DNA from: Patescibacteria group bacterium
Lineage (GTDB): Bacteria > Patescibacteriota > Patescibacteriia > UBA1558 > GWA2-36-10
Assembly (NCBI GenBank): GCA_041665545.1
Contig: JBAYIQ010000001.1
Span: forward strand, 67,495 to 131,494
Direction of reading: 5' to 3'
Length of the DNA: 64,000 nucleotides
Shown: piece by piece, positions 8,858 to 63,980 of the stretch
Layout of the letters: each line of letters begins with the position of its first letter
How positions within the stretch are numbered: position 1 is the first letter of the stretch
Notes under the pieces: model-generated
The model's input: only the letters and a program-made list of their open reading frames with translations
The model's database searches: none
Told to the model about the DNA's origin: nothing
Translations under genes and position numbers: made by a program

Positions 8858-8899
8858 TAAAAAAATAAAGCCCCCCCCTCAAGCTCTGCTTAAGGGGGG
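8858..8899 (-). terminator. Intrinsic terminator (7-8 bp C/G stem plus a long T-run on the minus strand)
   Basis: CCCCCCCC-13 nt-GGGGGG hairpin followed by TTTATTTTTTT on the minus strand. It sits just after the stop of the 8912-9208 gene. Confidence 0.6.
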
Positions 8900-8911
8900 T
8901 AATGGCCAGCA

Positions 8912-9208
8912 TCAACGCACTTTGTGTTTGAACCAACGGGCGAGGCGTTTCTTTTCAAGAATAAAAAAACGCAATGGTATCAATTGTGCCCGATGAGAAC
9001 GCGTTTGGGCATCACACCAGATACGTTTCCAGGCAAGCTGGTCATCTGTTTCCAAAACAAAACCTGCTGTCTGTAGGGCAACGGTAGCTTCTTGCTCGTT
9101 CTTGAATGGTCCAAAGATGACACCACTGCGATCACCTTCATAACTATGACGAATTTCTACCTCTAGTATTTCACTAGAGCCACATCCTACAAGCACAAAA
9201 CACTGCAT
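8912..9208 (-). CDS. GC-rich small hypothetical protein (98 aa) with a basic C-terminal tail
   Basis: AGGAGG RBS 7 nt upstream of ATG CAG TGT. GC content is far above that of its neighbours. It has its own promoter and terminator. Confidence 0.55.
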   Translation of the reverse strand: MQCFVLVGCGSSEILEVEIRHSYEGDRSGVIFGPFKNEQEATVALQTAGFVLETDDQLAWKRIWCDAQTRSHRAQLIPLRFFILEKKRLARWFKHKVR

Positions 9209-9252
9209 GACCTGCCTCCTTTGATGTTTGTTCAAATAACTTTCAACAACAT

Positions 9253-9281
9253 AATATATCATTATATTTATCTTTTGTCAA
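9253..9281 (-). promoter_or_regulatory. Sigma70-like promoter on the minus strand (TTGACA-17-TATATT) for the 8912-9208 cassette
   Basis: Reverse complement reads TTGACAaaagataaatataatgaTATATT. Confidence 0.5.
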
Positions 9282-9371
9282 TATTTTGTACCCGGATATT
9301 ATTTGTTATAAATAAATAATTTTTTTAACAAAACAAAAAAGCGGTCTATTAAATAAGCCGCTTTTTAAAAT

Positions 9372-11171
9372 TTATTCTTCGTTATTCAATGCTTGACGAT
9401 TGGCTTTACGACGGTCATTATCAGTTAAAGCCATTTTGCGCAAACGCACGCTTTTTGGGGTTATTTCCAAGTATTCATCATCAGCTATTATTTCCAAACC
9501 CTTTTCAATACTCAAAATATTCGGTGGCACCAAGGCAATAGCTTCATCTGAAGCTTTACTGCGCATATTGGTCAATTGCTTGCCCTTGGTGGGATTGACA
9601 TTCATATCCATGCCTTTGGCGGCATTGCCGATGACCATACCCTCGTAGACTTCCACGCCTGGTCCGATATACAGCACCCCTCTATCTTGTAGATTGTATA
9701 AAGAAAATCCTAAGGCCTTGCCAGTGGCCATGGAGACCATAGAGCCAACATCACGCTTTTTGATCTCACCAGTATAAGGACGATAGCCAATGACTCGCGC
9801 ACACAAGATGCCTTCGCCACGAGTATCAATAATAAATTCTCCCCGATAACCCAGCAAGCCCCGAGTCGGCATTTCAAATATCAAACGCGTTTGACTGCCA
9901 TGACTTTTCATACTAGTGACAATCCCCTTGCGCTTGCCGATTTTTTCCATGACTACTCCAGAACGATTTTCTGGCACATCTATAGTCACCTCTTCAAAGG
10001 GCTCCAGTTTTTTACCATCTTTTTCTTTGATAATTACTTGGGGTTGTGATACTTGCAGTTCATAACCCTCGCGACGCATGGTCTCAATCAAAATAGCAAT
10101 ATGTAATTCACCGCGACCATACACTTTGCAAGTGTCGTTGGAAAAATCAATTTTCAAGCCGACATTAATTTCCAATTCTTTTTCCAAACGCTCGCGCAGT
10201 TGCTTGCTAGTAACATATTTTCCTTCGCGTCCAGCAAAAGGAGAACTGTTCACTAAAAAATCCAAAGATATGGTGGGTTCATCCACAGTAATAGCTGGTA
10301 GCGCTTCTTGGTCAGCTGACAAACAAACAGTTTCCCCAATATCAATATCGGGAAAACCAGCCACCATTACTATATCGCCAGCCACAGCTTCCTCTACTTC
10401 CTTCCTTTCTAATCCATGAAAGGTAAATATTTTTGTAATACGACCAGTTTTATTTTCACCATTAGATTTTTTCAAAACCAAATTGCCTTTATTTTTCAAA
10501 CACCCTTCATAAATCCGACCAATAGCTAGTCGTCCCAAAAAATTATCATAGCCAAGATTGAATGGTTGAAAACGTAAAGGCAAATCTACCAAGGAAGCGG
10601 CTGGTGGAACTTTTTCTAATATCGCATCAAGCAGTGGCATGATGTCTTGAGAATCGTCAGTCAAATAACGCTTGGCAATTCCGGATTTGGCAATGGCATA
10701 AACAGTGGTAAAATCCAGTTGCTCATCAGTGGCGCCTAAGTCCAAAAATAATTCAAAAACTTGTTCATGCGCTAAATTAGGATTGGCCGCTGGTTTGTCA
10801 ATTTTGTTGAGCACCACGATTGGCTTCAAACCCAATTCCAAAGATTTTTTCAAAACAAATCTGGTCTGGGGCATAGGACCTTCTTGTGCGTCAACAACCA
10901 ACAAGACGCTGTCAATGGAGCGCAAAACCCGCTCTACTTCTGAACCAAAATCAGCGTGTCCGGGGGTATCGACAATATTTATTTTGGTGTCTTTGTAAAA
11001 CACTGAAGCATTTTTGGAATAAATCGTAATACCACGCTCTTTTTCTAGCGTATTGGAGTCCATACCCACACCTTCGTCTGCCAACATGCCGGTTTGCTTC
11101 AAAATAGCATCAGTCAAAGCAGTCTTTCCATGGTCAACGTGGGCGATAATTGCGATGTTTCTAATTTCCAT
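9372..11171 (-). CDS. typA: Translational GTPase TypA/BipA
   Basis: AIIAHVDHGKT, DTPGHADF and NKIDK GTPase motifs with a BipA C-terminal domain. Start placed at the internal MEIRN. Confidence 0.85.
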   Translation of the reverse strand: MEIRNIAIIAHVDHGKTALTDAILKQTGMLADEGVGMDSNTLEKERGITIYSKNASVFYKDTKINIVDTPGHADFGSEVERVLRSIDSVLLVVDAQEGPMPQTRFVLKKSLELGLKPIVVLNKIDKPAANPNLAHEQVFELFLDLGATDEQLDFTTVYAIAKSGIAKRYLTDDSQDIMPLLDAILEKVPPAASLVDLPLRFQPFNLGYDNFLGRLAIGRIYEGCLKNKGNLVLKKSNGENKTGRITKIFTFHGLERKEVEEAVAGDIVMVAGFPDIDIGETVCLSADQEALPAITVDEPTISLDFLVNSSPFAGREGKYVTSKQLRERLEKELEINVGLKIDFSNDTCKVYGRGELHIAILIETMRREGYELQVSQPQVIIKEKDGKKLEPFEEVTIDVPENRSGVVMEKIGKRKGIVTSMKSHGSQTRLIFEMPTRGLLGYRGEFIIDTRGEGILCARVIGYRPYTGEIKKRDVGSMVSMATGKALGFSLYNLQDRGVLYIGPGVEVYEGMVIGNAAKGMDMNVNPTKGKQLTNMRSKASDEAIALVPPNILSIEKGLEIIADDEYLEITPKSVRLRKMALTDNDRRKANRQALNNEE

Positions 11172-11245
11172 AAGTGCCAATAATACCAGAATTATAATGT
11201 TTTGGCAAGGTTTAGAGCCCAATAAAATAGCTTGCGCGCAAAACA

Positions 11246-11274
11246 TTGACAGAATTTACAATAAATGCTAATGT
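11246..11274 (+). promoter_or_regulatory. Sigma70-like promoter (TTGACA-17-TAATGT)
   Basis: TTGACAgaatttacaataaatgcTAATGT about 45 nt upstream of the RBS of the 11321 gene. Confidence 0.45.
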
Positions 11275-11320
11275 ATTTTATTATTTCGTACACCCCCAAC
11301 CCAATAAAGGATGGTGCGTC

Positions 11321-11686
11321 ATGATCGATATCCGTCAATTGCGTCAAGGACTTCTGATGCTGTGGGAACAGAGGAATCCACTCGGAAGTACAACGGGACT
11401 CATCCCCTGTGTCGTAGCTGAGGTGAAAGAAGACGCTTTTGGCATGATAGTGATGGACGATTTTCGCGTTGAGTGGGTTCATTTGGCTTCCAGCGAGATG
11501 CTTCTCAGCGAAGGTCTGCGACTGGCTTCCGAGGAAGATGTCCGCAGCTATCTGCAAGAACGTCGACGACTACTGGCCGACCAGGTCGCCAAGGCTCAGA
11601 GTCAACTCGAGGCAGCCCAGGAACGTCTTTTCTCCTACGATGCCCGCCGTGATTTTGTTCTGGCGACCTTTCCGCCGAAATCCTAG
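11321..11686 (+). CDS. GC-rich hypothetical protein (121 aa) with a predicted C-terminal coiled coil
   Basis: AAGGA RBS, ATG at 11321, about 55% GC. It is the only plus-strand gene within 49 kb. It has its own promoter and terminator. Confidence 0.55.
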   Translation: MIDIRQLRQGLLMLWEQRNPLGSTTGLIPCVVAEVKEDAFGMIVMDDFRVEWVHLASSEMLLSEGLRLASEEDVRSYLQERRRLLADQVAKAQSQLEAAQERLFSYDARRDFVLATFPPKS

Positions 11687-11733
11687 CACCATTCGGTGCT
11701 GACCCAAGAAAAAAAACACCCCCAACACCGGGG

Positions 11734-11767
11734 ATAGAGAGTCTGGTCAACTCTCTATTCTTTTTGC
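11734..11767 (+). terminator. Intrinsic terminator (perfect 9-bp stem ATAGAGAGT/ACTCTCTAT plus TCTTTTT)
   Basis: Seen directly in the sequence. Confidence 0.7.
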
Positions 11768-14257: not shown

Positions 14258-14300
14258 TATAATTATAGATAATTTTTGTATATTAAATCTAAAAATGTTT

Positions 14301-14319
14301 TGGCTGCCGGATAGGGACT
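14301..14319 (-). pseudogene. tRNA-Gln 3'-end fragment (acceptor/T-arm remnant) plus duplicated downstream flank
   Basis: TGGCTGCCGGATAGGGACT matches the 3' end of the tRNA at 14600-14673. The preceding flank TATATTAAATCTAAAAATGTTT resembles that tRNA's own flank. Confidence 0.5.
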
Positions 14320-14507
14320 TCCGCGTCGCTCACCCATTAATTTTAATAAGTTGTTCGCTCCTTGTCCTGGGCAGCGCTCAAAGCTACGCCAGCTCACTTT
14401 GAGCGACGCTCGATTTATTCGCTACGCTCATATCTCGCTTCTGCCCGTTCGAGTCCCTTTCATGTATTTAATAACTGGGAAAAAATTTAAATTTATTTCA
14501 CATGACT

Positions 14508-14550
14508 TGGCTGCCGGATAGGGACTCGAACCCCAATTACCAGGGCCAGC
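14508..14550 (-). pseudogene. tRNA-Gln 3'-half fragment (about 43 nt, anticodon-stem 3' strand through CCA)
   Basis: Aligns to the full tRNA at 14600-14673 from the CCA back to GGGCCAG, then diverges. There is no 5' half. Confidence 0.55.
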
Positions 14551-14599
14551 CTGCCCCGCTCGCCGAGCACTAAACGCTTATATTAAATTAAAAAAATAT

Positions 14600-14673
14600 T
14601 GGCTGCCGGACAGGGAGTCGAACCCCGATTACTAGGGCCAGAACCTAGCGTCCTACCATTAGACGATCCGGCA
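14600..14673 (-). tRNA. tRNA-Gln (anticodon CTG)
   Basis: Reverse complement folds as a canonical cloverleaf: acceptor TGCCGGA/TCCGGCA, D-loop AATGGTA, anticodon loop TTCTGGC, T-loop TTCGACT, encoded CCA. Confidence 0.8.
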
Positions 14674-14698
14674 ATAATTAAATTAGTTTTTTAAAAAA

Positions 14699-14758
14699 CA
14701 ACGGTGACTCGCGAGGCGGGCCGGGGAACCTAGCGTCCTACCATTAGACGATCCCCGA
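14699..14758 (-). pseudogene. tRNA 5'-half fragment (first 32 nt) fused to an unrelated GC-rich tail ending in a T-run
   Basis: Reverse complement reads TCGGGGATCGTCTAATGGTAGGACGCTAGGTT. This matches the acceptor of the Gln(TTG) tRNA and the D and anticodon stems of Gln(CTG). It is followed by CCCCGGCCCGCCTCGCGAGTCACCGTTGTTTTTT. Confidence 0.5.
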
Positions 14759-14917
14759 ACAAATAAAAACTGGCTTTTTATTTTAAACTATTTACAACTT
14801 TAGACATAAATTATACAAGGTACGACTTGCCCGCCAAAACTCCGAAGGAGTGACGGCGGGTCCCCGAATGGCTATAAATAACTAAAAAATAATATAATAA
14901 TTCTGTTGCTTAGTCAA

Positions 14918-16420
14918 TCAAATCAACTCTCCCCCAAAAGTATCAATAATATCCTCAACTTCTTTTTCGTTTTTTCCTTTATACACTTGGTGATTTTGTA
15001 CAAAATCATCGTCAATAATAAAATCCAGCAACAATTTATTGTTGGTCAGTTTAAAAACTATGTCGCTTATTGTACTTTTGACTGACGATTTGTTGAGCTG
15101 TTCTAGATGAAAATTGTACTGCAAGCCAACCAAAACCTGTTTTTCATCCAAAGTCAGCGGATGGCTATTCTGCAATAAGACTGCTAATGATTTATTTATT
15201 TTTCTGGTTTCTTCAATGACCTGTTGCCAAACTTGATATTGAGTTGAGCCACCAGTATTTATAGGTGTGGTGGCTGTTTTCTTCAATTCCGGTTCGCCGA
15301 GATTCTGACTACTGGTCATTTCTGGTGATTTTTTTAATAAATATTCCACGCAAGCCAATTCCAAAGGCAGTTGTTCCACTAAAGTATCTTTTATGGCCAG
15401 CTTGGTCAAAATAATATTTATTAACCTAGATAAATCCGGTACTGAAAAATCTCGCGCATGATTTATTATTGCTTCTTTTATTTCATCAGCGGCGTCTATT
15501 TGCCAGCTACTACCCACAATATTATAAAGCATTATCTGTCGCAAATACTCCAGCAGATCAGCAATAAAAATTTTTAAATCAATGCCTTCGTTGACTAATT
15601 TATTTATCTGATTGAGTGCCGCGGCTAAATTTTGGACTTTCAAGGCCTCAATCAATTCATTGATTTCTTTCCAATTACTGCGTGGCAATACCAAAGAAGC
15701 CAATTCATCGCTTATCTTTCCTTGGCCCAATGACATTATCTGACCCAAGAGCGACTCGGCGTCTCTCATGCCACCATCCGCTCGTCTGGCAATTTCTGTC
15801 AAAATATGATCCGGCACTATTGTTTTTTCCCACTCTACTATCTCACTCAGACGACTCAATATTTCACTTTGAGTCAATTTTTTGAAATCAAATCTTTGAC
15901 AACGGGAAATTATAGTTTGCGGTACTTTGTGTATTTCGGTAGTGGCTAAAACAAAAACTATTCTAGCTGGTGGCTCTTCTAAGGTTTTCAATAAGGCATT
16001 GAAAGCCGACTTGGAAAGCATGTGCACCTCATCGATGATAAATATTTTGTAGCCAGTTTTGCTAAAAGGCGGCACTTGCGCGCTATTGATAATATTATCG
16101 CGAACATTATCAACCCCAGTATGTGAAGCGGCGTCAATCTCTATCACATCCATTGACTGATTGTTGTTTAACTGGCGGCAGACACTGCATTCATTGCAGG
16201 GCTCAGCACTTGCTTCTTTTCTGTTTAGACAATTTAAAGAACGGGCCAATAACCTTGCAATAGTGGTTTTGCCCGTGCCCCTTGGCCCAACAAACAAATA
16301 AGCATGCGCTATTTGACCAGAGATTATCTCATTTTCGAGAGTCACTTTTATAGGCCTCTGGCCAACAACTTCCTTAAATGTTTTTGGCCGATATTTTCTG
16401 TAAATTACTTCCGAATTCAT
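14918..16420 (-). CDS. dnaX: DNA polymerase III subunit gamma/tau
   Basis: GPRGTGKTT Walker A, DEVHML, zinc-finger cysteines (CNECSVC), SRC motif. Confidence 0.9.
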   Translation of the reverse strand: MNSEVIYRKYRPKTFKEVVGQRPIKVTLENEIISGQIAHAYLFVGPRGTGKTTIARLLARSLNCLNRKEASAEPCNECSVCRQLNNNQSMDVIEIDAASHTGVDNVRDNIINSAQVPPFSKTGYKIFIIDEVHMLSKSAFNALLKTLEEPPARIVFVLATTEIHKVPQTIISRCQRFDFKKLTQSEILSRLSEIVEWEKTIVPDHILTEIARRADGGMRDAESLLGQIMSLGQGKISDELASLVLPRSNWKEINELIEALKVQNLAAALNQINKLVNEGIDLKIFIADLLEYLRQIMLYNIVGSSWQIDAADEIKEAIINHARDFSVPDLSRLINIILTKLAIKDTLVEQLPLELACVEYLLKKSPEMTSSQNLGEPELKKTATTPINTGGSTQYQVWQQVIEETRKINKSLAVLLQNSHPLTLDEKQVLVGLQYNFHLEQLNKSSVKSTISDIVFKLTNNKLLLDFIIDDDFVQNHQVYKGKNEKEVEDIIDTFGGELI

Positions 16421-16426: not shown

Positions 16427-17005
16427 CTAAAAATCTATTTCAATATCGTCGAATTTATTTTTTTTATTTTTTATGACATTTTCTACGGCTGACCAAGTGC
16501 TGTCATGATCCTTGGGCACCAGAATAACTATTTCATCGCCTTCTTCGCCTTTGAAGTAGGTGACGCTGGCCATCAAAACTCGATAAATTTTGTCCCCAGC
16601 CAAAACCACAAATTCTCCCAAATTTTTGTCCTTGACCAAACGTCCCACCAAGCGACTGCGTTCTACTGGTGAAATTTGCTTGTAGACAAAAGCGCCAGAA
16701 CGATCAATGGTTAGCTTCAATATATCACCCTCAACCAGCTTGGATTTGGAAGCGTAATTGGCTGGCACAGAATATTGTTTGCCATCAGGACCGATCATGA
16801 TCTGCCCATTGAAAATACCTTCCACCACTACACCGGTCTCATTCTCATCCTCTTTGCCAACACCAGCTGCTTTCAAGCTATAATCAACCGCCTGCTTACC
16901 ACTGGAGCCAGTCAATTCGCCCATAATCAGCTTGGTTTTCTTCAGTTCCAATTCCAGCGAATATATTAAGGATTCTAATTCTTTTATTTTTTTTGCTTGG
17001 GACAT
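16427..17005 (-). CDS. Hypothetical protein (192 aa) with an N-terminal coiled coil
   Basis: ORF co-oriented with and adjacent to dnaX. No recognisable motif. Confidence 0.5.
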   Translation of the reverse strand: MSQAKKIKELESLIYSLELELKKTKLIMGELTGSSGKQAVDYSLKAAGVGKEDENETGVVVEGIFNGQIMIGPDGKQYSVPANYASKSKLVEGDILKLTIDRSGAFVYKQISPVERSRLVGRLVKDKNLGEFVVLAGDKIYRVLMASVTYFKGEEGDEIVILVPKDHDSTWSAVENVIKNKKNKFDDIEIDF

Positions 17006-17110
17006 TTTTATTTTTGTTTACCGAAAAAATCTCTGTTTCGTCTATAAAATTACCATAAAAAAATTTATTTGGCAATAATTTTATTTTTCCTAAATATTTA
17101 TCAAAATACC

Positions 17111-17226: not shown

Positions 17227-17241
17227 CCAAAATACTGACAA

Positions 17242-49029: not shown

Positions 49030-49058
49030 TTGACAAAATCTATAAAATGTGATATATT
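49030..49058 (+). promoter_or_regulatory. Near-consensus sigma70 promoter (TTGACA-17-TATATT)
   Basis: TTGACAaaatctataaaatgtgaTATATT about 65 nt upstream of the start codon. Confidence 0.55.
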
Positions 49059-49126
49059 ATAAAGTAAACCAAAATGGCTAATTCCAGCCACTGGTAAGTA
49101 CTCTAAACATTCCCTAGGAGGTCGTG

Positions 49127-49753
49127 ATGGCAGCGATTCTGTTGTTCGCCTTTCAGGTCATCATGGCCTGGATCTACATGATTCCGCAGGTGATCGGCAT
49201 CCTGCATGGTAAGACCGGTGGTCTGACGCTGGCGATGTGGCTCATTTTCATGGGCTACCTCTTCGTCAGCCTCTCGTTATCAGTCATGGCCTGGAAAGAG
49301 AAGAGGGAGCGGATTAGGCTCTACACCATCATCATCTTTGCCCAATGGGTCGTCTTTATCTCTGCACTGTTCATCATGTGCATTGGATCAGTCCATTGGT
49401 CAAACGGTGACACGGCAGTATGCATAGCTGTTGTAGTGCTATCCATCTTCACTATTTCTCGCCATGGACTCAAGAACCCCATCACTCGTGGCTGGCTAGC
49501 AGTTTGGTGTAAGGGCATCCCCCAACTCTGGATGGCTTATACCATGTGGCACCAAGGTAGTGCTGAATGGCTACCGACCATTTCACTACTGGCCACCAAT
49601 GCTACAGCCATGCCTCGGCTGGTGCAGGTCTATCTGCAAGGCAAGCACGGTGGCTGGGACAGACCGACCAAAGCACTAATGCTGGGCGAGTCATCTAATG
49701 TCGGAACATGGCTAGTGGTAACACTGGTCTGGCTCACCCTTAGAGTGTTCTGA
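49127..49753 (+). CDS. GC-rich polytopic membrane protein with two IPQ-initiated 3-helix repeats (PQ-loop/SWEET-like)
   Basis: GGAGG RBS with a 5-nt spacer. About 6 TM. IPQ motifs at residues about 20 and about 130. GC about 55%, against about 33% in the flanking sequence. Confidence 0.45.
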   Translation: MAAILLFAFQVIMAWIYMIPQVIGILHGKTGGLTLAMWLIFMGYLFVSLSLSVMAWKEKRERIRLYTIIIFAQWVVFISALFIMCIGSVHWSNGDTAVCIAVVVLSIFTISRHGLKNPITRGWLAVWCKGIPQLWMAYTMWHQGSAEWLPTISLLATNATAMPRLVQVYLQGKHGGWDRPTKALMLGESSNVGTWLVVTLVWLTLRVF

Positions 49754-49801
49754 AACACTAGGGGCATACAGACTGGAGCATGTCTGTCATCAAAACTGCT
49801 C

Positions 49802-49836
49802 GAAGCCCGTTGCACACGCGACGGGCTTTTTCTTTA
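49802..49836 (+). terminator. Intrinsic terminator (8-bp stem AAGCCCGT/ACGGGCTT plus T-run)
   Basis: Seen directly in the sequence. Confidence 0.65.
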
Positions 49837-49905
49837 CAAAAAAAGAAAGTAATTAAAAATTATACTTTTTAAATACTTTCTACTTTTTACTTGTCACTTG
49901 ATGCT

Positions 49906-52280: not shown

Positions 52281-52315
52281 ATTGTAGCAATAATTAATAA
52301 TTTTGGGAAATATTT

Positions 52316-52993
52316 CTAGTCTGCGAGGCCCCCTCTATCCATACAAAGTATATAAATCCCCTGATATTTAAAATAATCTGGCCGAGTAATATTTTCTGGC
52401 AAGGTAAGGTTATTCTTTTTATAATATAAAGTAGTTTTATCAAGATACTCGCTATAACACTTGTGAGACCAATAATAAAACCAAAAATAAAAACTAAAAA
52501 ATAATATTAAACCAAACAGTAGATATTTATAATTACCATATTTTATTACTCTAATAATAATAAAAATAATTAGCACCAAATATAAAAATAACCCACCAAT
52601 CATCATGGTTAAAATTAAAGAACCATTCCAGGTAATCATAAATTTCGGCGGAAATAAATCATAGGATTCAATAGTAAATACAAAATAAGCCAAGTAAACT
52701 GTGACTGTAATAATATTAAAAAAAATTCTAAAAATTTTATTTTTTACAGAAAACGAGATTTTTTTAGGTTGGCTTTTTAAAATTGCCTTGGGACCTAAAA
52801 TTTTCCTCAAGAAACCTATTAAAATTAATGCCAAGTAAACTAATAAAATTAAAAATAATGTACTCCAAAAAAATGAACCATCTTTTAGTCTAACAATAGT
52901 CGGCCACCAATAAAATATAATAAAAAATAAAAATAACGGCACGGTCAATATTATTGACAACCTCAAATCTTTAAAAAAATTATTTAATTTCAT
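52316..52993 (-). CDS. Hypothetical polytopic membrane protein
   Basis: 225 aa, very AT-rich, at least 5 TM. Confidence 0.45.
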   Translation of the reverse strand: MKLNNFFKDLRLSIILTVPLFLFFIIFYWWPTIVRLKDGSFFWSTLFLILLVYLALILIGFLRKILGPKAILKSQPKKISFSVKNKIFRIFFNIITVTVYLAYFVFTIESYDLFPPKFMITWNGSLILTMMIGGLFLYLVLIIFIIIRVIKYGNYKYLLFGLILFFSFYFWFYYWSHKCYSEYLDKTTLYYKKNNLTLPENITRPDYFKYQGIYILCMDRGGLAD

Positions 52994-56469: not shown

Positions 56470-56952
56470 TTATTTGTATTGTCTAATATAATACCCAGCT
56501 ACTCCCATGGCCACACCAACATTGAGCGATTCTTTTTGGCCGTACATTGGCAAATAAATTATTTGGTCGGTCTTTTTTAGTAATGCCTTTGATACTCCAC
56601 GCACTTCATTGCCAAGCAACAGTGCTAAAGGAAATTGCGGTTTGAATTTATTATATGGTATGGCACCAGCCCCCAGTTCTAAACCAATTATTTTTACCTT
56701 TTGTTTTTTGAGTTTGATAAATAAACTAGAAATATTTTTGTGATGCTCCCAAAGCACGAAATTCTCTGACCCCAAAGCTATTTTTGATATTTGAGAAGAT
56801 GGCGGATGACCAGAATAGCTGGTCAAATAAATTTTGTCCACACCCAAAGCATCAGCGGTACGAAATATAGTACCAATATTGTATAAACTTCTGATATTGT
56901 GGGCTATTATATAAAAATCGTGATTGGCTGAAAAAGACCTATTTTTATTCAT
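56470..56952 (-). CDS. SpoU/TrmH-family RNA 2'-O-methyltransferase
   Basis: SPOUT motifs (NIGTIFRTADALG, LLGNEVRGVS). Start placed at the internal ATG (MNKNRS). Confidence 0.75.
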   Translation of the reverse strand: MNKNRSFSANHDFYIIAHNIRSLYNIGTIFRTADALGVDKIYLTSYSGHPPSSQISKIALGSENFVLWEHHKNISSLFIKLKKQKVKIIGLELGAGAIPYNKFKPQFPLALLLGNEVRGVSKALLKKTDQIIYLPMYGQKESLNVGVAMGVAGYYIRQYK

Positions 56953-56975
56953 ATCTTGACAGTTTAGTCTTGCTA

Positions 56976-57187
56976 TTGACAAAAAATTTTATATGTGCTA
57001 CTATGTTACTGTTTTTGTTCGTCCAACTACTAGCCATGCTCGCAAGCTTACGGGGTACAGCTTACGAGATTCACCGTGCGCGTCTCCCCAGCGACAGTTA
57101 TATATGTCGCCTAAGCAAGACGCAAATATTAACTTTACTTCACACGCGGCGGGGTTTGTCTCACAAGAGCGCCCCGCCTTTTCATTT
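56976..57187 (+). ncRNA. Candidate GC-rich structured sRNA unit of about 175 nt (TTGACA-17-TACTAT promoter, transcript about 57011-57187, intrinsic terminator GGCGGGG/CCCCGCC plus T-run)
   Basis: Promoter and terminator are both oriented on the plus strand. No RBS-led ORF. Extensive hairpins (CTCGCAAGCT/AGCTTACGAG; GCGTCT...AGACGC). About 52% GC between AT-rich minus-strand genes. Confidence 0.35.
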
Positions 57188-57197
57188 ACATAAATTT

Positions 57198-58823
57198 TTA
57201 TTTGTCGTCATGATAAACTTCTTCCTTTTTCTCTTTCATGAAACCCAGCCAATCCTCAAAAGCCAAGACTATCATCTTAAATGGCGCCTCAATAATAAAA
57301 TCCATGACAAAAGCAAAAATATTTATCTTGCGGAATTTGGTAGACAGCCAACGGCCAACGCCCACAATCGGTAAAGAGAAAAAATTCATTAGGAATGACA
57401 AAACATCTTCTTTGTTATCAATCACTTTGAGCTCTTTGGCGGTACTACGAATACGAATAGCAAAAAAACTAACTGCTGTCAAAAAGAACAAAAATATAGC
57501 GCCGCTAATTATATTAAAATTTAACTTACGCAAGAGGTAAATAATTCCCCCAAAAACAGCGATGTACAACAAGGTGTACATAAAATTATAAAAAATCTGA
57601 TAACTCAACGACTGTTTGTATTTTGACTTGAGCTGACACAAAATTGATCGCTCGGATTTACCATAGACCAAATCTTTCAAGTTGGCCAAAATTTTATCAG
57701 TATTGTTGGTTCCAGGCACAGAAAAAGACAAAGTAACCAAAAACATCAGCAAAGGTGGAAACACTATATTGATTCCTAAATTAAGCATGTTGATGTGCCC
57801 CAAAACATATCTTTCATAAGGAAACTCCAAAGCAACAGCAAACAACACTTTAGTAATAAAAATATAAATAATGGCCCGCATGGAACTCTTGCTGAGCTTA
57901 CTGCGAATAGATTTGTAACGCTCAATAATCAGTTTTCTGGCTTCGGCTTCCAGCTCCTCTGGCTGGACCAATAAATCCTCTATTTTGGTCTCGTGACGCA
58001 ATATTAATTCGTGCAAAACCTGAAAAGTAACGACCGGCTCTTTGATGGCTTGTGATATACGGCGTTGATAAGGGTGGCGCAAATGACGCTGGATAGTGCG
58101 ATAGATAGGGCCTATATTAGTGGCTATTTCTGTGATTAATTTTTGATCGGCTCCAAGCCAATCTGGATAATACAAATTCAGTAGATGATAAGAAATTATT
58201 GTTACGTCAGATTTGACTAAGGATTTGTGGATAGTAATATAAAGTTGAATATTTTTTTCTCTAATACTCAAATCGTCACCTTTTAGCTTGACGCGCGGTT
58301 TGGTCACTTCATACATGGCCTCAATCACCGCATCAGCAATATCTTCCGGAGTCAGAATAATATCGATTTCACAGGCCTCAATGCCAATCAGCCAATCAAA
58401 ATAATCCTGCAAATTCTTTTGCTCCAGTTTATCATTTTCATAATGCTCGTTGAGCTGAGCAAACAAATCATTGTACTTGGCAATGACTTGCTCTACTTCC
58501 TGAACTTTTGATTCTGGAATACCATTGTTGGGTATGTATTGTCCTCTAACCAAATCCTCAATTAGACTCCTGGCAATCTGGGGTTTTAAAATTTCCAAAA
58601 TAAAACGGCGCTTTAGATTGCGCTCGATAGCATAACGCCTCAATAAATGAACTTCTTTAAAATCAACGCTGTTTCTCAGCTTTTCATAAAGCGAAGACAA
58701 GTGGCTGGCCATTTCTTCAACTGAGATGACATTTTTGTTTTCATCTTGGGCAAAAGCCTCGCGCTGGCGATAAATACGCTCAACTCTTTTAAAAAGGAGT
58801 ACTACTTCTGATGATATTTTCAT
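57198..58823 (-). CDS. Hypothetical membrane protein (541 aa; soluble N-terminal half, C-terminal multi-TM)
   Basis: ORF. Last minus-strand gene before the strand switch. Confidence 0.55.
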   Translation of the reverse strand: MKISSEVVLLFKRVERIYRQREAFAQDENKNVISVEEMASHLSSLYEKLRNSVDFKEVHLLRRYAIERNLKRRFILEILKPQIARSLIEDLVRGQYIPNNGIPESKVQEVEQVIAKYNDLFAQLNEHYENDKLEQKNLQDYFDWLIGIEACEIDIILTPEDIADAVIEAMYEVTKPRVKLKGDDLSIREKNIQLYITIHKSLVKSDVTIISYHLLNLYYPDWLGADQKLITEIATNIGPIYRTIQRHLRHPYQRRISQAIKEPVVTFQVLHELILRHETKIEDLLVQPEELEAEARKLIIERYKSIRSKLSKSSMRAIIYIFITKVLFAVALEFPYERYVLGHINMLNLGINIVFPPLLMFLVTLSFSVPGTNNTDKILANLKDLVYGKSERSILCQLKSKYKQSLSYQIFYNFMYTLLYIAVFGGIIYLLRKLNFNIISGAIFLFFLTAVSFFAIRIRSTAKELKVIDNKEDVLSFLMNFFSLPIVGVGRWLSTKFRKINIFAFVMDFIIEAPFKMIVLAFEDWLGFMKEKKEEVYHDDK

Positions 58824-59704: not shown

Positions 59705-59733
59705 TTGACAGAAATTTGATTATATGCTATACT
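59705..59733 (+). promoter_or_regulatory. Sigma70-like promoter (TTGACA-17-TATACT) driving leader elements A and B and the receiver gene
   Basis: TTGACAgaaatttgattatatgcTATACT. Confidence 0.45.
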
Positions 59734-59761
59734 CTTTTCATTGACAATTTAACAAACCTTT

Positions 59762-59866
59762 GAAGCAAGGAAGCATTATCTTTATTTGGACGCTTGGATA
59801 ATGTGGAGCTAGTAGCGTAACCGGCAACAATTTTTGGTTACGCTTCCTAATGGGAAGTGTTTTTTG
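59762..59866 (+). promoter_or_regulatory. Structured RNA leader A (riboswitch-like) ending in an intrinsic terminator
   Basis: Conserved blocks GAAGCAAGGA / TTTGGACGCTTGG / GGAGCTAGTAGCGTAACCGGCA. Alternative 8-bp hairpin GCGTAACC/GGTTACGC. Terminator CTTCC..GGAAG plus TTTTTT. Confidence 0.45.
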
Positions 59867-59900
59867 TTGAATGTACCTTTAAAAAATCACACAATCAATC

Positions 59901-60051
59901 GATGAGGCAAGGAATGATCGTCTGTATTTGGACGCTTGGTCCTCCCACTCCGCCATCTGGCGGATATGGACGGACGAGGACGATCAGGAGCTAGTAGCGT
60001 AACCGGCAATTTTTTTGGTTATTAGCTAAACACCTCATTCAGGTGTTTTTT
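59901..60051 (+). promoter_or_regulatory. Structured RNA leader B (paralog of A with an extended internal stem) ending in an intrinsic terminator
   Basis: Same three conserved blocks. 62-nt insertion forming CCGCCAUCUGGCGG and GGUCCUC/GAGGACG stems. Terminator CACCTcattcAGGTG plus TTTTTT, directly before the receiver gene RBS. Confidence 0.45.
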
Positions 60052-60083
60052 GTTACCTGGTGGCTAGCAAGGAGGAAAAGAAC

Positions 60084-60461
60084 ATGAGCACGATTTTTGT
60101 CTTGGACCAGAAGGAATCTGCCGAATCCCTGGCCATGGCACTCTGTCAGGAAGGACACGTGACTTACATAAGTTGCGACTACAAAAAGGCCTTAAGACAG
60201 ATCGCTGAACTGACCGCCGCCAAAGCAGGGCCAGATCTAGTGTTGGCTGAATTTCTGGAAACAGACGGGGCAGAACTTTGCAGGGAACTGCGGCGATACG
60301 GTCTGACCAGGAAAATCAAGGTTGTACTGATGAGTCGCGGTGGTCCGCACAGCAATATTGATTATTACCGCCGACTGGGAAAAAGCTACGGAGCAGATGA
60401 CTACTTACTCAAGTCAGACGACCTGCGAGCAATCGCTCGAAGCATCCAACACTTGATCTAG
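60084..60461 (+). CDS. Stand-alone receiver (REC) domain protein with the phospho-acceptor Asp replaced by Glu (pseudo-receiver)
   Basis: AAGGAGG RBS with an 8-nt spacer. CheY-like fold sequence: IFVLDQ, DLVLAEF (E at the phospho-site), conserved K in KVVLMS..., GADDYLLK. About 50% GC. Confidence 0.6.
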   Translation: MSTIFVLDQKESAESLAMALCQEGHVTYISCDYKKALRQIAELTAAKAGPDLVLAEFLETDGAELCRELRRYGLTRKIKVVLMSRGGPHSNIDYYRRLGKSYGADDYLLKSDDLRAIARSIQHLI

Positions 60462-60476: not shown

Positions 60477-60527
60477 ATGGATCTGATCAGCGTCCTCATC
60501 CTCATCTCGGCCAAGTACGAGTGGTGA
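60477..60527 (+). CDS. 16-aa hydrophobic micro-ORF (MDLISVLILISAKYEW), translationally coupled to the receiver gene
   Basis: Strong AAGGAGG RBS 7 nt upstream, 12 nt after the receiver stop codon. Followed by hairpins and a terminator. Confidence 0.3.
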   Translation: MDLISVLILISAKYEW

Positions 60528-60596
60528 CTCCCCTCACCAAAGAAAGGTGGTGATAAAAAATTCGACAGTACAGATGATCACTGTCGATAATAACCT

Positions 60597-60640
60597 CGGG
60601 GTCAGACACACTCACTATCTGACCCCGAACAAAAAATCAT
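60597..60640 (+). terminator. Intrinsic terminator (perfect 9-bp stem CGGGGTCAG/CTGACCCCG plus A/T-rich run)
   Basis: Seen directly. Preceded by a second perfect 7-bp hairpin CGACAGT..ACTGTCG at 60563-60586. Confidence 0.55.
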
Positions 60641-60700
60641 TGATTTTCCGACTTGATTGTGCTACATTAAAAATATATAGAATATTCACAATTTAAATAA

Positions 60701-60824
60701 AGTGAGGCAATGACTGATTACTATCCATTTTGGACGCCAAATTGGTAATCAAGAGCTAGTGGCGTAACCGGCACTTTTATCAACTAAGCCACCCACCTCA
60801 CCAAACATTAATTGAGGTTTTTTT
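60701..60824 (+). promoter_or_regulatory. Structured RNA element C (third paralog of A and B) with an intrinsic terminator
   Basis: GAGGCAATGA / TTTGGACGCC / AGAGCTAGTGGCGTAACCGGCA blocks. Terminator CCTCA..TGAGG plus TTTTTTT. Confidence 0.45.
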
Positions 60825-60839
60825 ATGCCTAAATAAGCA

Positions 60840-60868
60840 TTGACAATTTAAAAAACATGGGTTATAAT
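60840..60868 (+). promoter_or_regulatory. Consensus sigma70 promoter (TTGACA-17-TATAAT) with a 230-nt AT-rich leader for the lipoprotein gene
   Basis: TTGACAatttaaaaaacatgggtTATAAT. Confidence 0.55.
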
Positions 60869-61103
60869 AACCAGTTAATTATTAATCATAAATTAGATAT
60901 TGCGCTAACCTTGAAATTTTATTTTTAGACTAGCGGAATATCTAAATAGGAAAGAACATTACAACTTGGGAAATCACACAATCACACCGACTCCACCAGT
61001 AGTTATGAAATAATCTTACCAAAACATTAAGGGAGGTGAGTAAAACTAGAATTCTCCTTCGGTTTCTGTAGATCGCCAAATCACAGATTACAGGAGGCAA
61101 GCG

Positions 61104-62174
61104 ATGAGATTCGTAAGCGTTCTGCTACTGGTTGTGGCTTCCTCGGCGCTTCTGCTGGGTGGCTGCGAACAGAGCCCCACCACTCCGGTGGAAAACCTCA
61201 GCCCCGGACAGGAGCACAATGTCTTCCTGTCTACCATGTATGCCAACTACGGCATCGAGCAGTACCACAATGTCGATACCGAACTGGCTATCAATCGTGC
61301 CAGCAAGGTGTTCGCCAAGCAGCTGAACCTGCCCGAAGCCGAAGTGCGACAGCAGATGGAGCAAGGAATCCGGGTCTTCAACGACCTGGAAGCTGCTGGG
61401 ATCATCGATTTCGACCATTTCAAGATCATCGATCCGTCGGGGTTTGCTGAATACATCAGCAACCTCGACCCCGCCACCACCCCCGAAGAACGGCGGATGG
61501 TTCGAGACTTGATCGGCGATCTTGTCGCCACTGGCGCCGACAAGTCCCGAAGCTACGACCAGGTGGTGGCCAAATGGAACCACCACTCCGTCACCCAGCG
61601 GCTCACCAGCTGCCTGGACGTACTGGCGGCCAGTGATGAGTTCTGGACGACGCCCGACGCAGACAAGAAGCAACCCTATACCGCTGGCGAGGTCCAGATG
61701 TGGGATACCGGCGGAGCTCTGGCGGGAGCTTGGCTCGGTGGTCCCCTCGGAAGCCTGCTCGTAGGAGGGCTCACCTCTTATCTGGCAGCCGAATACTGCT
61801 CGCTCTGCCCGCCGGACGAACCGCCGCCGCCACCGCCGCCCCCGCCGCCGCCACCGCCGTCACCGAACGGTTATGATCCGCCGCCCGTCGTCCTGTCCGG
61901 TTTCATCTCTTTTCCTCCTCGCCACCCCGCTGGCTGGGCGGTGGTGGTCATGCTGATCGTCTGTGTCACGGCCTGGCTGATATTGCACAAGCGATATCAG
62001 CTTGGTAAGTTCTGGGGTTTGGGCATGATCATGCTGATCGGCTCCTTGTCCCAGATCGCCGCCAGCAGCATCAGCCACACCAACAACAGCATGTCGATCT
62101 TGCTGTTGGTGATTTCCAGCGTGATCGGAATCTGGCTCATTCGTCGCAACACCCAACGGCGAGTGTTGAACTAG
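61104..62174 (+). CDS. GC-rich lipoprotein with a poly-proline linker and C-terminal TM helices
   Basis: AGGAGG RBS. Signal peptide with lipobox LLGGC. PPDEPPPPPPPPPPPPPSP tract. Two or three C-terminal hydrophobic helices. About 58% GC. Confidence 0.6.
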   Translation: MRFVSVLLLVVASSALLLGGCEQSPTTPVENLSPGQEHNVFLSTMYANYGIEQYHNVDTELAINRASKVFAKQLNLPEAEVRQQMEQGIRVFNDLEAAGIIDFDHFKIIDPSGFAEYISNLDPATTPEERRMVRDLIGDLVATGADKSRSYDQVVAKWNHHSVTQRLTSCLDVLAASDEFWTTPDADKKQPYTAGEVQMWDTGGALAGAWLGGPLGSLLVGGLTSYLAAEYCSLCPPDEPPPPPPPPPPPPPSPNGYDPPPVVLSGFISFPPRHPAGWAVVVMLIVCVTAWLILHKRYQLGKFWGLGMIMLIGSLSQIAASSISHTNNSMSILLLVISSVIGIWLIRRNTQRRVLN

Positions 62175-62199
62175 ACACCTCAAACAGAGACCACGCATA

Positions 62200-62247
62200 G
62201 GACCCCGCATCTGTTGCATTCACAATGCACTGCGGGGTCCTCTTTTT
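62200..62247 (+). terminator. Intrinsic terminator (9-bp stem GGACCCCGC/GCGGGGTCC plus TCTTTTT)
   Basis: Seen directly. Confidence 0.65.
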
Positions 62248-62410
62248 ATTGACTAAATGCTAAATATATACTATAATTTTTTTGTTTTTTATATTTATTC
62301 GGGGACCCGTCCGCCTCGGCTACGCCGCAGGCGTGCCGGGCGAGTCTACTATTCATAAGGACATAGTCATATATAAAACAAGTAGTATAATTTACATTAT
62401 TTTTAAACAT

Positions 62411-62484
62411 TCGGGGATCGTCTAATGGTAGGACAGCGGCCTTTGAAGCCGTGAATTGGGGTTCGAATCCCTGTCCCCGAGCCA
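62411..62484 (+). tRNA. tRNA-Gln (anticodon TTG)
   Basis: Cloverleaf: acceptor TCGGGGA/TCCCCGA, D-loop AATGGTA, anticodon loop CTTTGAA, T-loop TTCGAAT, CCA encoded. Confidence 0.8.
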
Positions 62485-62741
62485 CTCGACTCGTCGTCGT
62501 TTCACTCCGCCTCGCTCGTGATTTCAGCTCCTCACTTCGTTCGTTGTTTCAACCCTTCATATAAAAAAGACGAGGTGAGTGTCCCGAGCGTAGTCGAGGG
62601 ACAAAACAATTTTTTATGAAGTATACCTAAGATGCTGCGCAATAGCGCAGCGCCCCGAGCCAGCCTTCGCCAAGGCTACGGCTGGCTTACAGCCATAAAA
62701 TATACCACAAAATTTAAAAATTAATTAAAAAATAAAATTAT

Positions 62742-63407
62742 ATGTCAGAAAACATTATTGAGGAAACTTCATCGAATACACCAGAAGAAAAGCAAAACGA
62801 AGAACAAAAAATTGATAAAAAATCAATAAAAATTAGCAAAAAACTTATAATTATTATTTCAATAATTATTGTGCTGGGTATTTTAGCTTGGTTTTCCAAA
62901 AGCTTATTTGTAGCGGCCATTGTTGATGGCCATCCAATAAGTCGCGCCTCTGTTGTTCAAAAACTAGAAAAAGAAGCTGGTAAAAATTTATTAGAATCCC
63001 TGGTTATTGAAAAACTAATCCAAAACGAAGCTAAAGTAAAAAAAATTACCGTCAGTGATGAGGAAATAAATGCGGAAATAACAAAAATTGAAACTCAAAT
63101 AACTTCACAAGGCGACACCATGGATAGCGCGCTCGCCGCTCAAAATATGACTATTGATGATTTGAGAGGACAGATTGTTACTCAAAAAGAATTAGAAAAA
63201 TTGTTGGCTGACAAAGTAGCTGTCACTGATGAAGAAGTTGCCAAATATATTGCTGATAATCAAGTCCCTATGACTGCCGGACAAGAGGCCACAATTAACG
63301 AACAAATTAAAAGCGAATTGCGCAACCAAAAACTTAGTACTGAGGCTCAAACTTTTATAGCCAGTTTAAAAGCCAAAGCTAAAATTCAATACTGGGTAAA
63401 TTATTAA
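62742..63407 (+). CDS. SurA N-terminal-domain chaperone-like protein, N-terminally membrane anchored
   Basis: 221 aa with one TM, followed by a SurA-N/PpiD-like helical domain (ISRASVVQKLEKEAGKNLLESLVIEKLI). AT-rich host-like composition. Confidence 0.55.
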   Translation: MSENIIEETSSNTPEEKQNEEQKIDKKSIKISKKLIIIISIIIVLGILAWFSKSLFVAAIVDGHPISRASVVQKLEKEAGKNLLESLVIEKLIQNEAKVKKITVSDEEINAEITKIETQITSQGDTMDSALAAQNMTIDDLRGQIVTQKELEKLLADKVAVTDEEVAKYIADNQVPMTAGQEATINEQIKSELRNQKLSTEAQTFIASLKAKAKIQYWVNY

Positions 63408-63436
63408 ATTGTTGTTAAATTAATAAACTCAAAAAA

Positions 63437-63490
63437 CACCCACCCATTCGACTACGCTCACCACAAGTCGCTCAGGGTGATTTTTTGTTA
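63437..63490 (+). terminator. Terminator hairpin (CACCC...GGGTG) plus ATTTTTTGTT
   Basis: Seen directly. Confidence 0.45.
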
Positions 63491-63503
63491 AATTTACTTC
63501 TTA

Positions 63504-63532
63504 TTGACTACATGATATATATATGATAATTT
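63504..63532 (+). promoter_or_regulatory. Sigma70-like promoter (TTGACT-16/17-ATAATT)
   Basis: TTGACTacatgatatatatatgATAATT. Confidence 0.45.
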
Positions 63533-63599
63533 ATGTTGTCAGCTCTGGTTAGACCAGAACATGTTCCTAAACTTCAACTTTCTTAAGGGGGTGATTGTC

Positions 63600-63932
63600 A
63601 TGGCGAAGGATGAACTCCCTCCGGACAAGATCGAGATCCAGGGCGGCCGAGTAGTCAGCTTGGAAGAGTGGTGTATGTGGAACGGAGAGCCCGCTCTCAC
63701 GCTCCAAGTCTCCAGAATCACGAGCGGCTACTCTGTCTGTGTGTCTGACCCCGAACATGGTGGCCATGCCCCGAGACAGGGTGCTACCCTGCAAGAGGCA
63801 GCCGTCGATGTGCTGCACCCCGAGGTCATCGGGAAACTGGAAACGCTCTTCGGGATGAAGAATCCAGCCGAAGCGCAGATACGCGAGCATCACTATCGCA
63901 AGGGTGATGGTCTGCTGGTCATCATCGGCTAG
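63600..63932 (+). CDS. GC-rich hypothetical soluble protein (110 aa)
   Basis: AAGGGGGTGA RBS, ATG at 63600, about 58% GC. Own promoter and terminator. Confidence 0.55.
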   Translation: MAKDELPPDKIEIQGGRVVSLEEWCMWNGEPALTLQVSRITSGYSVCVSDPEHGGHAPRQGATLQEAAVDVLHPEVIGKLETLFGMKNPAEAQIREHHYRKGDGLLVIIG

Positions 63933-63943
63933 TGCCCTCGACT

Positions 63944-63980
63944 CCGCCGCTCAGCTAACAACTGGGCGGCGGTTTTTCTT
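63944..63980 (+). terminator. Intrinsic terminator (CCGCCGC/GCGGCGG stem plus TTTTTCTTT)
   Basis: Seen directly. Confidence 0.6.

Follow-up and report, generated by a model that had tools for sequence, protein, structure and literature searches.

The question raised by this locus is how a set of short genes, each equipped with its own promoter and terminator, came to lie in the gaps between the housekeeping genes of a patescibacterial chromosome. The locus is a stretch of 64,000 nucleotides (nt; the window) of contig JBAYIQ010000001.1 (positions 67,495 to 131,494 of the forward strand; assembly GCA_041665545.1) from a Patescibacteria group bacterium. A first-pass annotation had described six GC-rich cassettes in it, and these are present at about the coordinates claimed; it missed a further cassette (c0, 5383–5796), a gene of 25% GC (52316–52993) and three riboswitches in cassette 5. 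The cassette units are designated c0 to c6, with c5a and c5b denoting the pseudo-receiver and the lipoprotein open reading frames (ORFs) of cassette 5. Each unit consists of a native-type sigma-70 promoter, a Shine-Dalgarno (SD) sequence, a short ORF or an RNA, and an intrinsic terminator, and sits in an intergenic gap. Our reading, with a probability of roughly 0.6, is that these are genuine chromosomal accessory genes, autonomous units resembling the morons of phages, in a flexible pool exchanged mainly among Patescibacteria. The category, horizontally exchanged accessory genes, is an ordinary one; its form, moron-like units in a cellular chromosome, is unusual and cleanly modular.

Whole units at different loci in near-identical genomes

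For comparison, eight related loci were retrieved via the neighbouring ZIP transporter gene (zip). Host proteins of loci L005 and L006 are 91–95% identical to those of the window, those of L008 and L009 79–87%, and those of L010 and L011 mostly 65–75% (PfkB only about 52%). Several of the L005–L011 records are titled 'uncultured Gammaproteobacteria bacterium' metagenome-assembled genomes (MAGs), but gene content and similarity point to mislabelled taxonomy.

Sharp compositional boundaries and textbook promoter, ribosome-binding and terminator elements could suggest an assembly or binning chimera or engineered insertions, both of which the first-pass annotation had considered, and a chimera at a 36-nt repeat is visible in L003, a short related JGI contig. 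However, a 295-kb contig (NCBI GCA_041662385.1, JBAZSO010000001.1; JGI 3300037810) carries the same cassette junctions; the zip–receiver–lipoprotein, TypA–c2–cyclophilin and c1–UppS junctions recur in independent Logan contigs of two runs (SRR6484324 and SRR18595301), the TypA–c2–cyclophilin junction having been re-assembled in two SRA runs; and the same architecture is found in eight or more related MAGs that other studies produced. Since the junctions recur in independent assemblies and relatives share the architecture, chimerism is rejected. Engineering is contradicted by promoters that match those of native RNA genes (see below), by homologous cassettes in many environmental Patescibacteria, and by the lack of any vector, plasmid or phage DNA match to the cassettes. 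Both origins are scarcely credible.

The relocation of a whole unit is seen most directly with cassette 3, which comprises the following features:

49030..49838, plus strand: cassette 3
49030–49058, plus strand: promoter
49127–49753, plus strand: ORF of 208 aa, preceded by an SD sequence
49802–49838, plus strand: terminator

The gap between holB and rnh, where c3 sits in the window, is empty (about 40 bp) in L006 and L011, and in L005 it contains a different high-GC ORF of 99 aa with its own promoter and the same terminator as c3. The nearest c3 homologue (78% amino acid identity) belongs to the MAG that also contains L005, where it lies between rplJL and a HAD/YceG/BacA operon (L117). Whole promoter-to-terminator units occupy different loci in near-identical genomes. 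DNA homology between the window and L117 spans 49028, in the -35 hexamer, to 49838, in the terminator T-tract; as its limits are the -35 box and the T-tract, the transferred module is the whole transcription unit. The c3 family has 45 homologues (49–78% identical), and all the named ones are annotated as Patescibacteria or plain 'bacterium'. They occur in at least six differing contexts, have a separate promoter in each of them, and belong to low-GC genomes in every context examined. Those of L126 and L127 are found within 4.5-kb strain-variable islands of small uncharacterised genes (up to nine) with high GC at third codon positions (GC3).

The first-pass annotation had called the c3 product a PQ-loop-like membrane protein, and the AlphaFold (AF2) model agrees: it has seven transmembrane helices with a mean predicted local distance difference test (pLDDT) score of 90.8, and its best PDB matches are cystinosin (8DKE), the KDEL receptor (KDELR, 6I6J) and AtSWEET13 (5XPD), with probability of about 1.0, TM-scores of 0.54–0.68 and 9–16% identity. 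The family alignment contains two PQ motifs (YMxPQV and KGIPQLW). These data support a PQ-loop-like protein with a predicted 3+1+3 fold, sharing the seven helices and the two PQ motifs with the PQ-loop/SWEET/KDEL-receptor proteins but differing from them in that no Pfam family, and hence no PQ-loop profile, matched at E ≤ 0.1. Full-length forms with seven transmembrane helices are unusual in bacteria, where semiSWEETs with three prevail. The 5' untranslated regions (UTRs) of the c3 family carry a hairpin, UGGCU-AAUUCC-AGCCA (49075–49090; L117 4952, L118 4950, L126 5750), whose stem shows compensatory changes and whose AAUUC loop is conserved; a similar hairpin occurs in c0-type UTRs (window 5846–5831; L005 3140), and it is restricted to these two cassette families.

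Cassette 4 illustrates outright gain:

56920..57197, plus strand: cassette 4 insertion
56976–57004, plus strand: promoter
about 57011–57186, plus strand: non-coding RNA of about 175 nt
57146–57186, plus strand: terminator

It is absent from six of six relatives, in which a gene for a 541-aa protein and a SpoU-type methylase gene overlap (ATGACGACAAATAA). In the window the cassette separates the two genes and has replaced the overlapping start of the SpoU-type gene, giving it a new N-terminus (minus strand), so that the earlier statement that no host gene is disrupted has to be corrected. Comparison with the relatives revealed no target duplication at the site. The RNA is modestly stable (folding z of -2.4). 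It matches no Rfam family, contains no convincing ORF, and lacks homologues in the roughly 1 Mb of loci retrieved. Over its full length the RNA (56952–57197) is antisense to the transcript that presumably reads through from the 541-aa gene to the SpoU-type gene. Its terminator hairpin lacks a U-tract when read on the minus strand, so that the RNA could regulate the SpoU-type gene in antisense. The 541-aa protein (57198–58823, minus strand), encoded immediately upstream of the variable region, is 64–96% identical across the clade and matches no Pfam or PADLOC entry.

In addition to moving as wholes, the units exchange ORFs within conserved regulatory frames. Three examples were observed: the c3-type terminator with another ORF in L005 described above, two classes of receiver allele behind one riboswitch leader (see below), and, in front of a different ORF, the promoter and UTR of the c0 type. 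The latter involves the following unit:

5315..5893, minus strand: c0 unit, with promoter at 5893–5865, an SD sequence and terminator at about 5345–5315
5383–5796, minus strand: c0 ORF, a membrane protein of 137 aa with four transmembrane helices, GC3 0.52; 5' UTR hairpin at about 5846–5831

Its promoter and 5' UTR (5893–5819) are 77% identical to L005:3093–3166, which at the recJ site drives a 105-aa ORF unrelated to that of c0. Compared with syntenic relatives, c3, c4 and the c5b payload are extra DNA, and horizontal acquisition, as had been proposed, is supported for c3, c4 and the c5 payloads: relatives with host proteins 70–95% identical lack them, have others in their place or carry them at another locus.

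The c-di-GMP-II riboswitch locus between zip and tRNA-Gln

Cassette 5 is a clade-conserved locus between zip and a tRNA-Gln gene and not a recent insertion. It contains three aptamers of the cyclic di-GMP (c-di-GMP)-II class and two payload regions:

59705..59733, plus strand: promoter of the riboswitch operon (TTGACA-17-TATACT, extended TG), conserved in relatives
59752–59835, plus strand: aptamer 1 (Rfam RF01786, 67.7 bits against a gathering score of 53.5), with terminator at 59840–59866
59896–60017, plus strand: aptamer 2 (47.3 bits, E 3.6e-8, with a 41-nt loop insert), with terminator at 60028–60054
60084..60461, plus strand: c5a, pseudo-receiver of 125 aa, GC3 0.56
60477..60527, plus strand: micropeptide ORF of 16 aa (MDLISVLILISAKYEW) with a strong SD sequence, followed by a hairpin at 60595–60629
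60694–60782, plus strand: aptamer 3 (49.4 bits, E 8.9e-9), with terminator at 60795–60825
60840..62247, plus strand: c5b unit, with promoter at 60840–60868 (12/12 consensus positions), a 235-nt 5' UTR and terminator at 62200–62247
61104–62174, plus strand: c5b ORF, lipoprotein of 356 aa with lipobox, all-alpha domain, glycine-zipper-like segment, poly-Pro linker and two C-terminal transmembrane helices
62411–62484, plus strand: tRNA-Gln(UUG), with native promoter at 62249–62277 and a GC-hairpin leader; conserved right border of the variable locus, also in L010 and L011

Aptamers were found downstream of zip in seven of the eight related loci, two or three in each, while L009 ends about 150 nt past zip. 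Orthologues of aptamers 2 and 3 in relatives reach 58–72 bits; those of aptamer 2 in L005 and L010 score 58–69 bits, and the counterparts of aptamer 3 score 47.9 bits in L005 and 61.6 bits in L012. Across 12 aligned aptamers, pairing of the inner helix is complete (100%), with compensatory changes at 6 of 8 pairs, the pseudoknot and the core are invariant, and the covariation score was reached by none of 500 shuffles; the outer P1 helix is weak (67% paired). When leaders of the aptamer 1 type are folded without constraints, GCGUAACC, which belongs to the ligand-binding core, base-pairs with GGUUACGC to form an antiterminator; GGUUACGC and the 5' arm of the terminator overlap. Since ligand binding should then free the terminator, the folds suggest that c-di-GMP would favour termination, i.e. 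an OFF switch. In minimum-free-energy folds this logic is clear for the aptamer 1 types but ambiguous for aptamers 2 and 3.

The first gene behind the leader, c5a, had been called a pseudo-receiver, and this holds. It scores 25.6 bits with Pfam PF00072 (Response_reg), below the gathering cut-off of 30.2, and shows weak matches to NCBIfam response regulators and one weak PHROGs match (E 7e-7) to an unannotated family; an exhaustive HMMER search of a representative library gave 261 unannotated matches at E ≤ 0.001, of which 260 are weak (E 1e-11 to 1e-4). On alignment with CheY, the phospho-acceptor position D57 is occupied by Glu in 7 of 8 clade proteins, c5a included, and the acidic Mg2+ pair D12/D13 is lost, while K109 is kept. 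As both the phospho-acceptor and the acidic pair are gone, c5a and its relatives in the clade are pseudo-receivers. The micropeptide that follows is of type A (MDLISVLILISAKYEW), conserved in L005 and L006. A type B micropeptide, ending in IDLFWWLR[KR], is encoded by SD-preceded ORFs downstream of the receiver-like gene in L006 (11712), L010 (11400) and L012 (4908), and appears to have been lost in the window.

The receiver gene occurs in two allele classes. That of L006 has no nucleotide similarity to those of L005 and the window, despite flanks of 87–92% identity, but is 75% identical to that of L012, whose flanking genes are only 64–68% identical; a 35-nt remnant of the end of the old ORF persists downstream in L006. 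The slot after aptamer 3, which in the window holds the surface lipoprotein c5b behind a constitutive promoter, is equally variable, being occupied by a different secreted protein or lipoprotein in L005, L010, L011 and L012. The lipoprotein assignment of c5b agrees with its lipobox, as read from the sequence. A single homologue (57% identity) was found among 5.8 billion proteins; the c5b model (pLDDT 67) gave no fold match, and one marginal PDB sequence match (E 0.0023) was judged not meaningful. The homologue is known from one contig only, L003 (JGI Ga0393274_0044360), a probable mis-assembly in which a 36-nt repeat (130–165 and 1168–1203) brackets a patescibacterial segment, the rest being unrelated high-GC DNA. 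The terminator and the tRNA promoter that follow it there are nearly identical to those of the window, although the proteins are only 57% identical.

Tandem c-di-GMP-II riboswitches upstream of surface-protein genes are known in Clostridia (PMC9481103), with 59 doublets and 9 triplets described, mostly before surface-anchor genes in Paraclostridium. The present array shares with them the aptamer class (RF01786), the tandem arrangement with one terminator for each aptamer, and the presumed control of a surface-protein gene. It differs in its patescibacterial host, in the pseudo-receiver and micropeptide that come first, in the weak outer P1 and in the predicted OFF logic. No report of c-di-GMP-II riboswitches in Patescibacteria was found in the literature searched. 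No riboswitch was found near the other high-GC islands (L117, L124, L126 and L127), and a search for GGDEF, EAL and HD-GYP genes of the window gave no motif match apart from a chance GGDEF in the acetate kinase of relatives.

Composition, origin and exchange of the units

The compositional contrast is real but smaller than had been described. The window has 38.6% GC and its backbone without cassettes 37.7%, against a claimed value of about 33%, and cassettes 1 to 6 as wholes have 42, 50, 50, 46, 50 and 54%, against a claimed 50–58%. The GC excess is limited to the ORFs; the spacers are host-like. With the 49 host ORFs of the window as reference, foreign codon usage is borne out for c2, c3, c5a, c5b and c6, with GC3 of 0.54, 0.64, 0.56, 0.75 and 0.68 against 0.25–0.49 for the host and leave-one-out synonymous-codon likelihood z values of -6.1, -8.8, -6.4, -8.3 and -6.8, but not for cassette 1 (GC3 0.35, z -2.2), which lies inside the host range. 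Stand-alone high-GC3 units make up about 1% of the genes in other patescibacterial loci (about 0.6 Mb), compared with about 10% in the window.

Near-consensus promoters were confirmed. TTGACA-17-TATAAT-like sites occur at all units, with 10–12 of 12 positions matching for c1, c3, c4, c5 and c5b and weaker matches for c2 and c6, and the top sigma-70 matches within 48–64 kb are those of cassettes (49030, 56976, 59705 and 60840). Equally good sites lie upstream of the RNase P RNA gene (35058–35030) and of both tRNA-Gln genes (62249–62277 and 14917–14889), and the cassette promoters are embedded in AT-rich, host-like sequence. Since RNase P RNA and tRNA-Gln use the same promoter type, the promoters formerly described as E. 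coli-type are in the organism's own style. SD sequences are present at the coding units, as claimed. A hairpin with T-tract follows c1, c2, c3, c4, c5b and c6, but the stem of c2 is not GC-rich and the hairpin after c5a and the micropeptide (60595–60629) has no U-tract, so that strong GC-stem terminators are not universal. Likewise, the plus-strand orientation against minus-strand neighbours applies to c2, c3 and c4 only, while c5 and c6 share a block of plus-strand genes with zip, tRNA-Gln and a SurA-like gene.

How could such units be exchanged? Natural competence and homologous recombination are established in cultivated Patescibacteria (PMC11665869), and 83% of the detected transfers into Patescibacteria have been attributed to other Patescibacteria (PMC12455944). 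We propose that i) DNA might enter by natural competence, ii) units could spread by homologous recombination via conserved flanks or via re-used regulatory modules serving as homology arms, iii) the first insertions may have occurred by rare illegitimate recombination, because no target duplications are seen, and iv) a deletion bias would later trim the units to their functional limits.

The closest parallel is the phage moron of the Hendrix/Juhala concept, which has been reviewed and defined (PMC3594210). As in morons, individual genes carry a promoter and a terminator of their own, deviate in GC content (c1 excepted) from their neighbours and lie between genes of a syntenic backbone, and c3, c4 and the c5b payload are missing from the corresponding position in relatives; unlike morons, they sit in a cellular housekeeping backbone with no phage genes near, one of them is an RNA unit, and ORFs are exchanged in re-used regulatory modules. 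The horizontally transferred genes and islands described in Patescibacteria (PMC12455944) are likewise patchy accessory genes of streamlined genomes, exchanged mostly within the phylum, but that study works at the level of genes and islands (MetaCHIP, IslandViewer), without promoter-to-terminator units, ORF swapping in fixed frames or persistent high GC3. Integron cassettes are similar in having promoter-proximal slots where unrelated short ORFs replace one another; the present units differ in that there is no IntI or attC, each has its own promoter and terminator, and they are scattered rather than arrayed. Integron cassettes were rejected as a candidate, as the ends share no repeat family and the Pfam listings of neighbouring genes contain no integrase.

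Several points weigh against the reading of the units as moron-like genes exchanged among Patescibacteria: i) no donor of matching GC was found for any cassette; ii) the cassettes showed neither integrase nor transposase, and neither repeats nor target duplications; iii) c1, c2 and c6, for which no homologue was found, are putative insertions judged by their composition or anatomy, and the composition of c1 is normal; iv) relatives of c3 that are 22–33% diverged in protein sequence keep a GC3 of 0.55–0.67 within genomes of 38–43% GC; and v) the riboswitch-locus payloads have a GC3 of 0.53–0.92 against 0.23–0.40 for the host clade-wide, although the receiver-like proteins are only 34–39% identical.

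The first of these points also bears on two ideas about the source. Very recent acquisition at many sites from one high-GC donor, as first proposed, is not upheld, as no donor was found, GC3 spans 0.35–0.75 and the c5 locus is clade-conserved. Capture of the genes from a higher-GC bacterial host (basibiont) of the epibiont would fit the compositional contrast, and several products are surface or membrane proteins with a plausible part in host interaction. Yet the c3 homologues come only from Patescibacteria or unnamed metagenome bins, c6 has no homologue and c5b a single one, and c5a shows only generic receiver similarity, making this origin very improbable.

The second point concerns mobile elements. 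The units could be cargo or remnants of an unsampled high-GC patescibacterial phage, plasmid or integrative element, acting partly at tRNA-Gln, whose mobility genes have since been deleted. Their moron-like anatomy, the high-GC3 islands of up to nine small uncharacterised genes in L126 and L127, and the position of the variable locus next to tRNA-Gln(UUG) in the window, L010 and L011 would all accord with this, as would half-copies of tRNA-Gln at 14300–14770: around the intact tRNA-Gln(CUG) (14600–14673) there are extra 3' halves at 14300–14342 and 14507–14549 and an extra 5' half at 14726–14767. These fragments, separated by GC-rich stretches and enclosing no cargo, suggest scars of old recombination or integration at that tRNA. 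However, c1 to c4 do not adjoin tRNA genes, no att-type or direct repeats flank any cassette, and no end-motif or repeat family is common to the cassette ends. The flanks are housekeeping genes (TypA, UppS, HolB, RNase H, RecJ and SpoU), and the Pfam listings of the genes around the cassettes contain no integrase or phage gene. Five cassette queries gave no match in IMG/VR, and blastn against INPHARED and PLSDB gave no cassette match, only a match of the riboswitch to a Niallia plasmid. PHROGs gave no informative match for the window cassettes, the weak c5a match to an unannotated family being the only one, and Pfam, NCBIfam, PADLOC and PDB sequence searches of the cassette proteins gave nothing beyond the receiver similarity of c5a. 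A mobile-element origin of this kind is considered quite improbable, and mobilisation via the tRNA-Gln sites, as first suggested, is unsupported: no integrase was found, and tRNA repeats do not enclose the cassettes as they would in a tRNA-targeting integrative element.

The last two points, the persistence of high GC3, are not as expected from simple transfer followed by amelioration. Three causes can be envisaged: an unsampled vector of high GC from which the units are imported again and again, hot spots of biased gene conversion, or selection acting on codons. The units could accordingly be long-resident, fast-evolving genes of the lineage whose high GC3 is kept by GC-biased gene conversion or codon-level selection and is not of foreign origin. 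The zip–tRNA-Gln locus has a high GC3 in every clade member whatever the host GC3 (0.23–0.40), c3 relatives 67–78% identical to that of the window keep it in low-GC hosts, and the GC excess is confined to ORFs within host-like spacers, all of which would be expected of resident genes. On the other hand, c3 and c4 vary in presence or relocate between near-identical genomes, the receiver allele classes are common to distant lineages, and the same hot spots also accept low-GC cargo. A GC3 gap of 0.3–0.5, moreover, far exceeds the known effects of GC-biased gene conversion. Long residence is thus conceivable but unlikely as the explanation.

A more far-reaching model, which we regard as rather doubtful, would be a phylum-wide pool of minimal cassettes whose ORFs are exchanged in re-used modules via a dedicated, so far unrecognised recombination route, with GC-rich coding either maintained or derived from an undiscovered high-GC vector. 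In this model the c-di-GMP-II-gated hot spot would switch the pseudo-receiver and the hypervariable lipoprotein, possibly reading the c-di-GMP of the bacterial host.

Returning to the reading of moron-like units exchanged among Patescibacteria, these organisms have tiny genomes and depend on hosts, and their means of varying their surface and transport repertoire are little understood. In the window, variation arrives as minimal, independently expressed units that change place and swap ORFs from one near-identical genome to the next, with no recognisable mobility genes. The predicted c-di-GMP RNA switches over a signalling-like protein and a strain-variable surface protein offer concrete candidates for host-interaction genes, and the native promoters, terminators and riboswitches are natural regulatory parts for the emerging genetics of Patescibacteria. 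The persistence of high GC3 in AT-rich genomes is a puzzle that bears on horizontal transfer and amelioration in streamlined genomes.

Remaining units and neighbouring features

Three cassettes and one low-GC gene complete the set of units in the window:

8858..9281, minus strand: cassette 1, with promoter at 9281–9253 (TTGACA-17-TATATT), an SD sequence and a 98-aa ORF at 8912–9208
8871–8899, minus strand: terminator of cassette 1, a C/G hairpin with T-tract
11246..11767, plus strand: cassette 2, with promoter at 11246–11274, an SD sequence, a 121-aa ORF at 11321–11686 and terminator at 11734–11767
63504..63980, plus strand: cassette 6, with promoter at about 63504–63532, an SD sequence, a 110-aa ORF at 63600–63932 and terminator at 63944–63980
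52316..52993, minus strand: accessory ORF of 225 aa with 25% GC, in the hot spot downstream of recJ

Cassette 1 has no homologue beyond its own genome, c2 is an ORFan in homologue searches, and c6 has no homologue at all, including in the search of 5.8 billion proteins; the 90% clusters of all three contain only their own genome. For c1 and c2, 80 metagenome TypA loci were compared, but these are too distant (at most 78% TypA identity) and lack synteny. The 25%-GC gene is absent from L005, L006, L008, L010 and L011. The recJ site was found in three states: the 25%-GC gene in the window, a high-GC 105-aa cassette in L005, and about 300 nt of palindromic repeats in L006. These palindromic 'GTCATTC...GGAATGAC' elements, resembling miniature inverted-repeat transposable elements or repetitive extragenic palindromes, also occur in intergenic gaps of the window (50340–50460, 52176–52283 and 55330–55440); in L006 they fill the hot spot at 4540–4720.

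The two tRNA-Gln genes share an upstream module (14857–14922 and 62244–62309; 74% identical, in inverted orientation) composed of a consensus promoter, 'TTCGGGGA', which equals the first 8 nt of the tRNA, and a GC-rich hairpin. Around tRNA-Gln(UUG) and the SurA-like gene there are non-coding elements rich in GC (62290–62350, 62484–62680 and 63440–63480). They carry the 12-mer TCGACTACGCTC and its reverse complement, raise the local GC content outside any ORF, and are absent in L010.

The RNase P RNA is of bacterial class A (34564–34951, minus strand; 173.7 bits) and has its own consensus promoter (35058–35030) inside a run of minus-strand genes. Two leaders of about 120 nt (TTTTGGCTACCCGCCTTGACTCGCC ... 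TAATATTAGC ... GGCGAGGCAGGATT), at 2490–2620 and 17090–17240 on the minus strand, precede the genes at 1298–2401 and 16427–17005. They have no Rfam match at the gathering threshold and may represent an undescribed cis-regulatory RNA.

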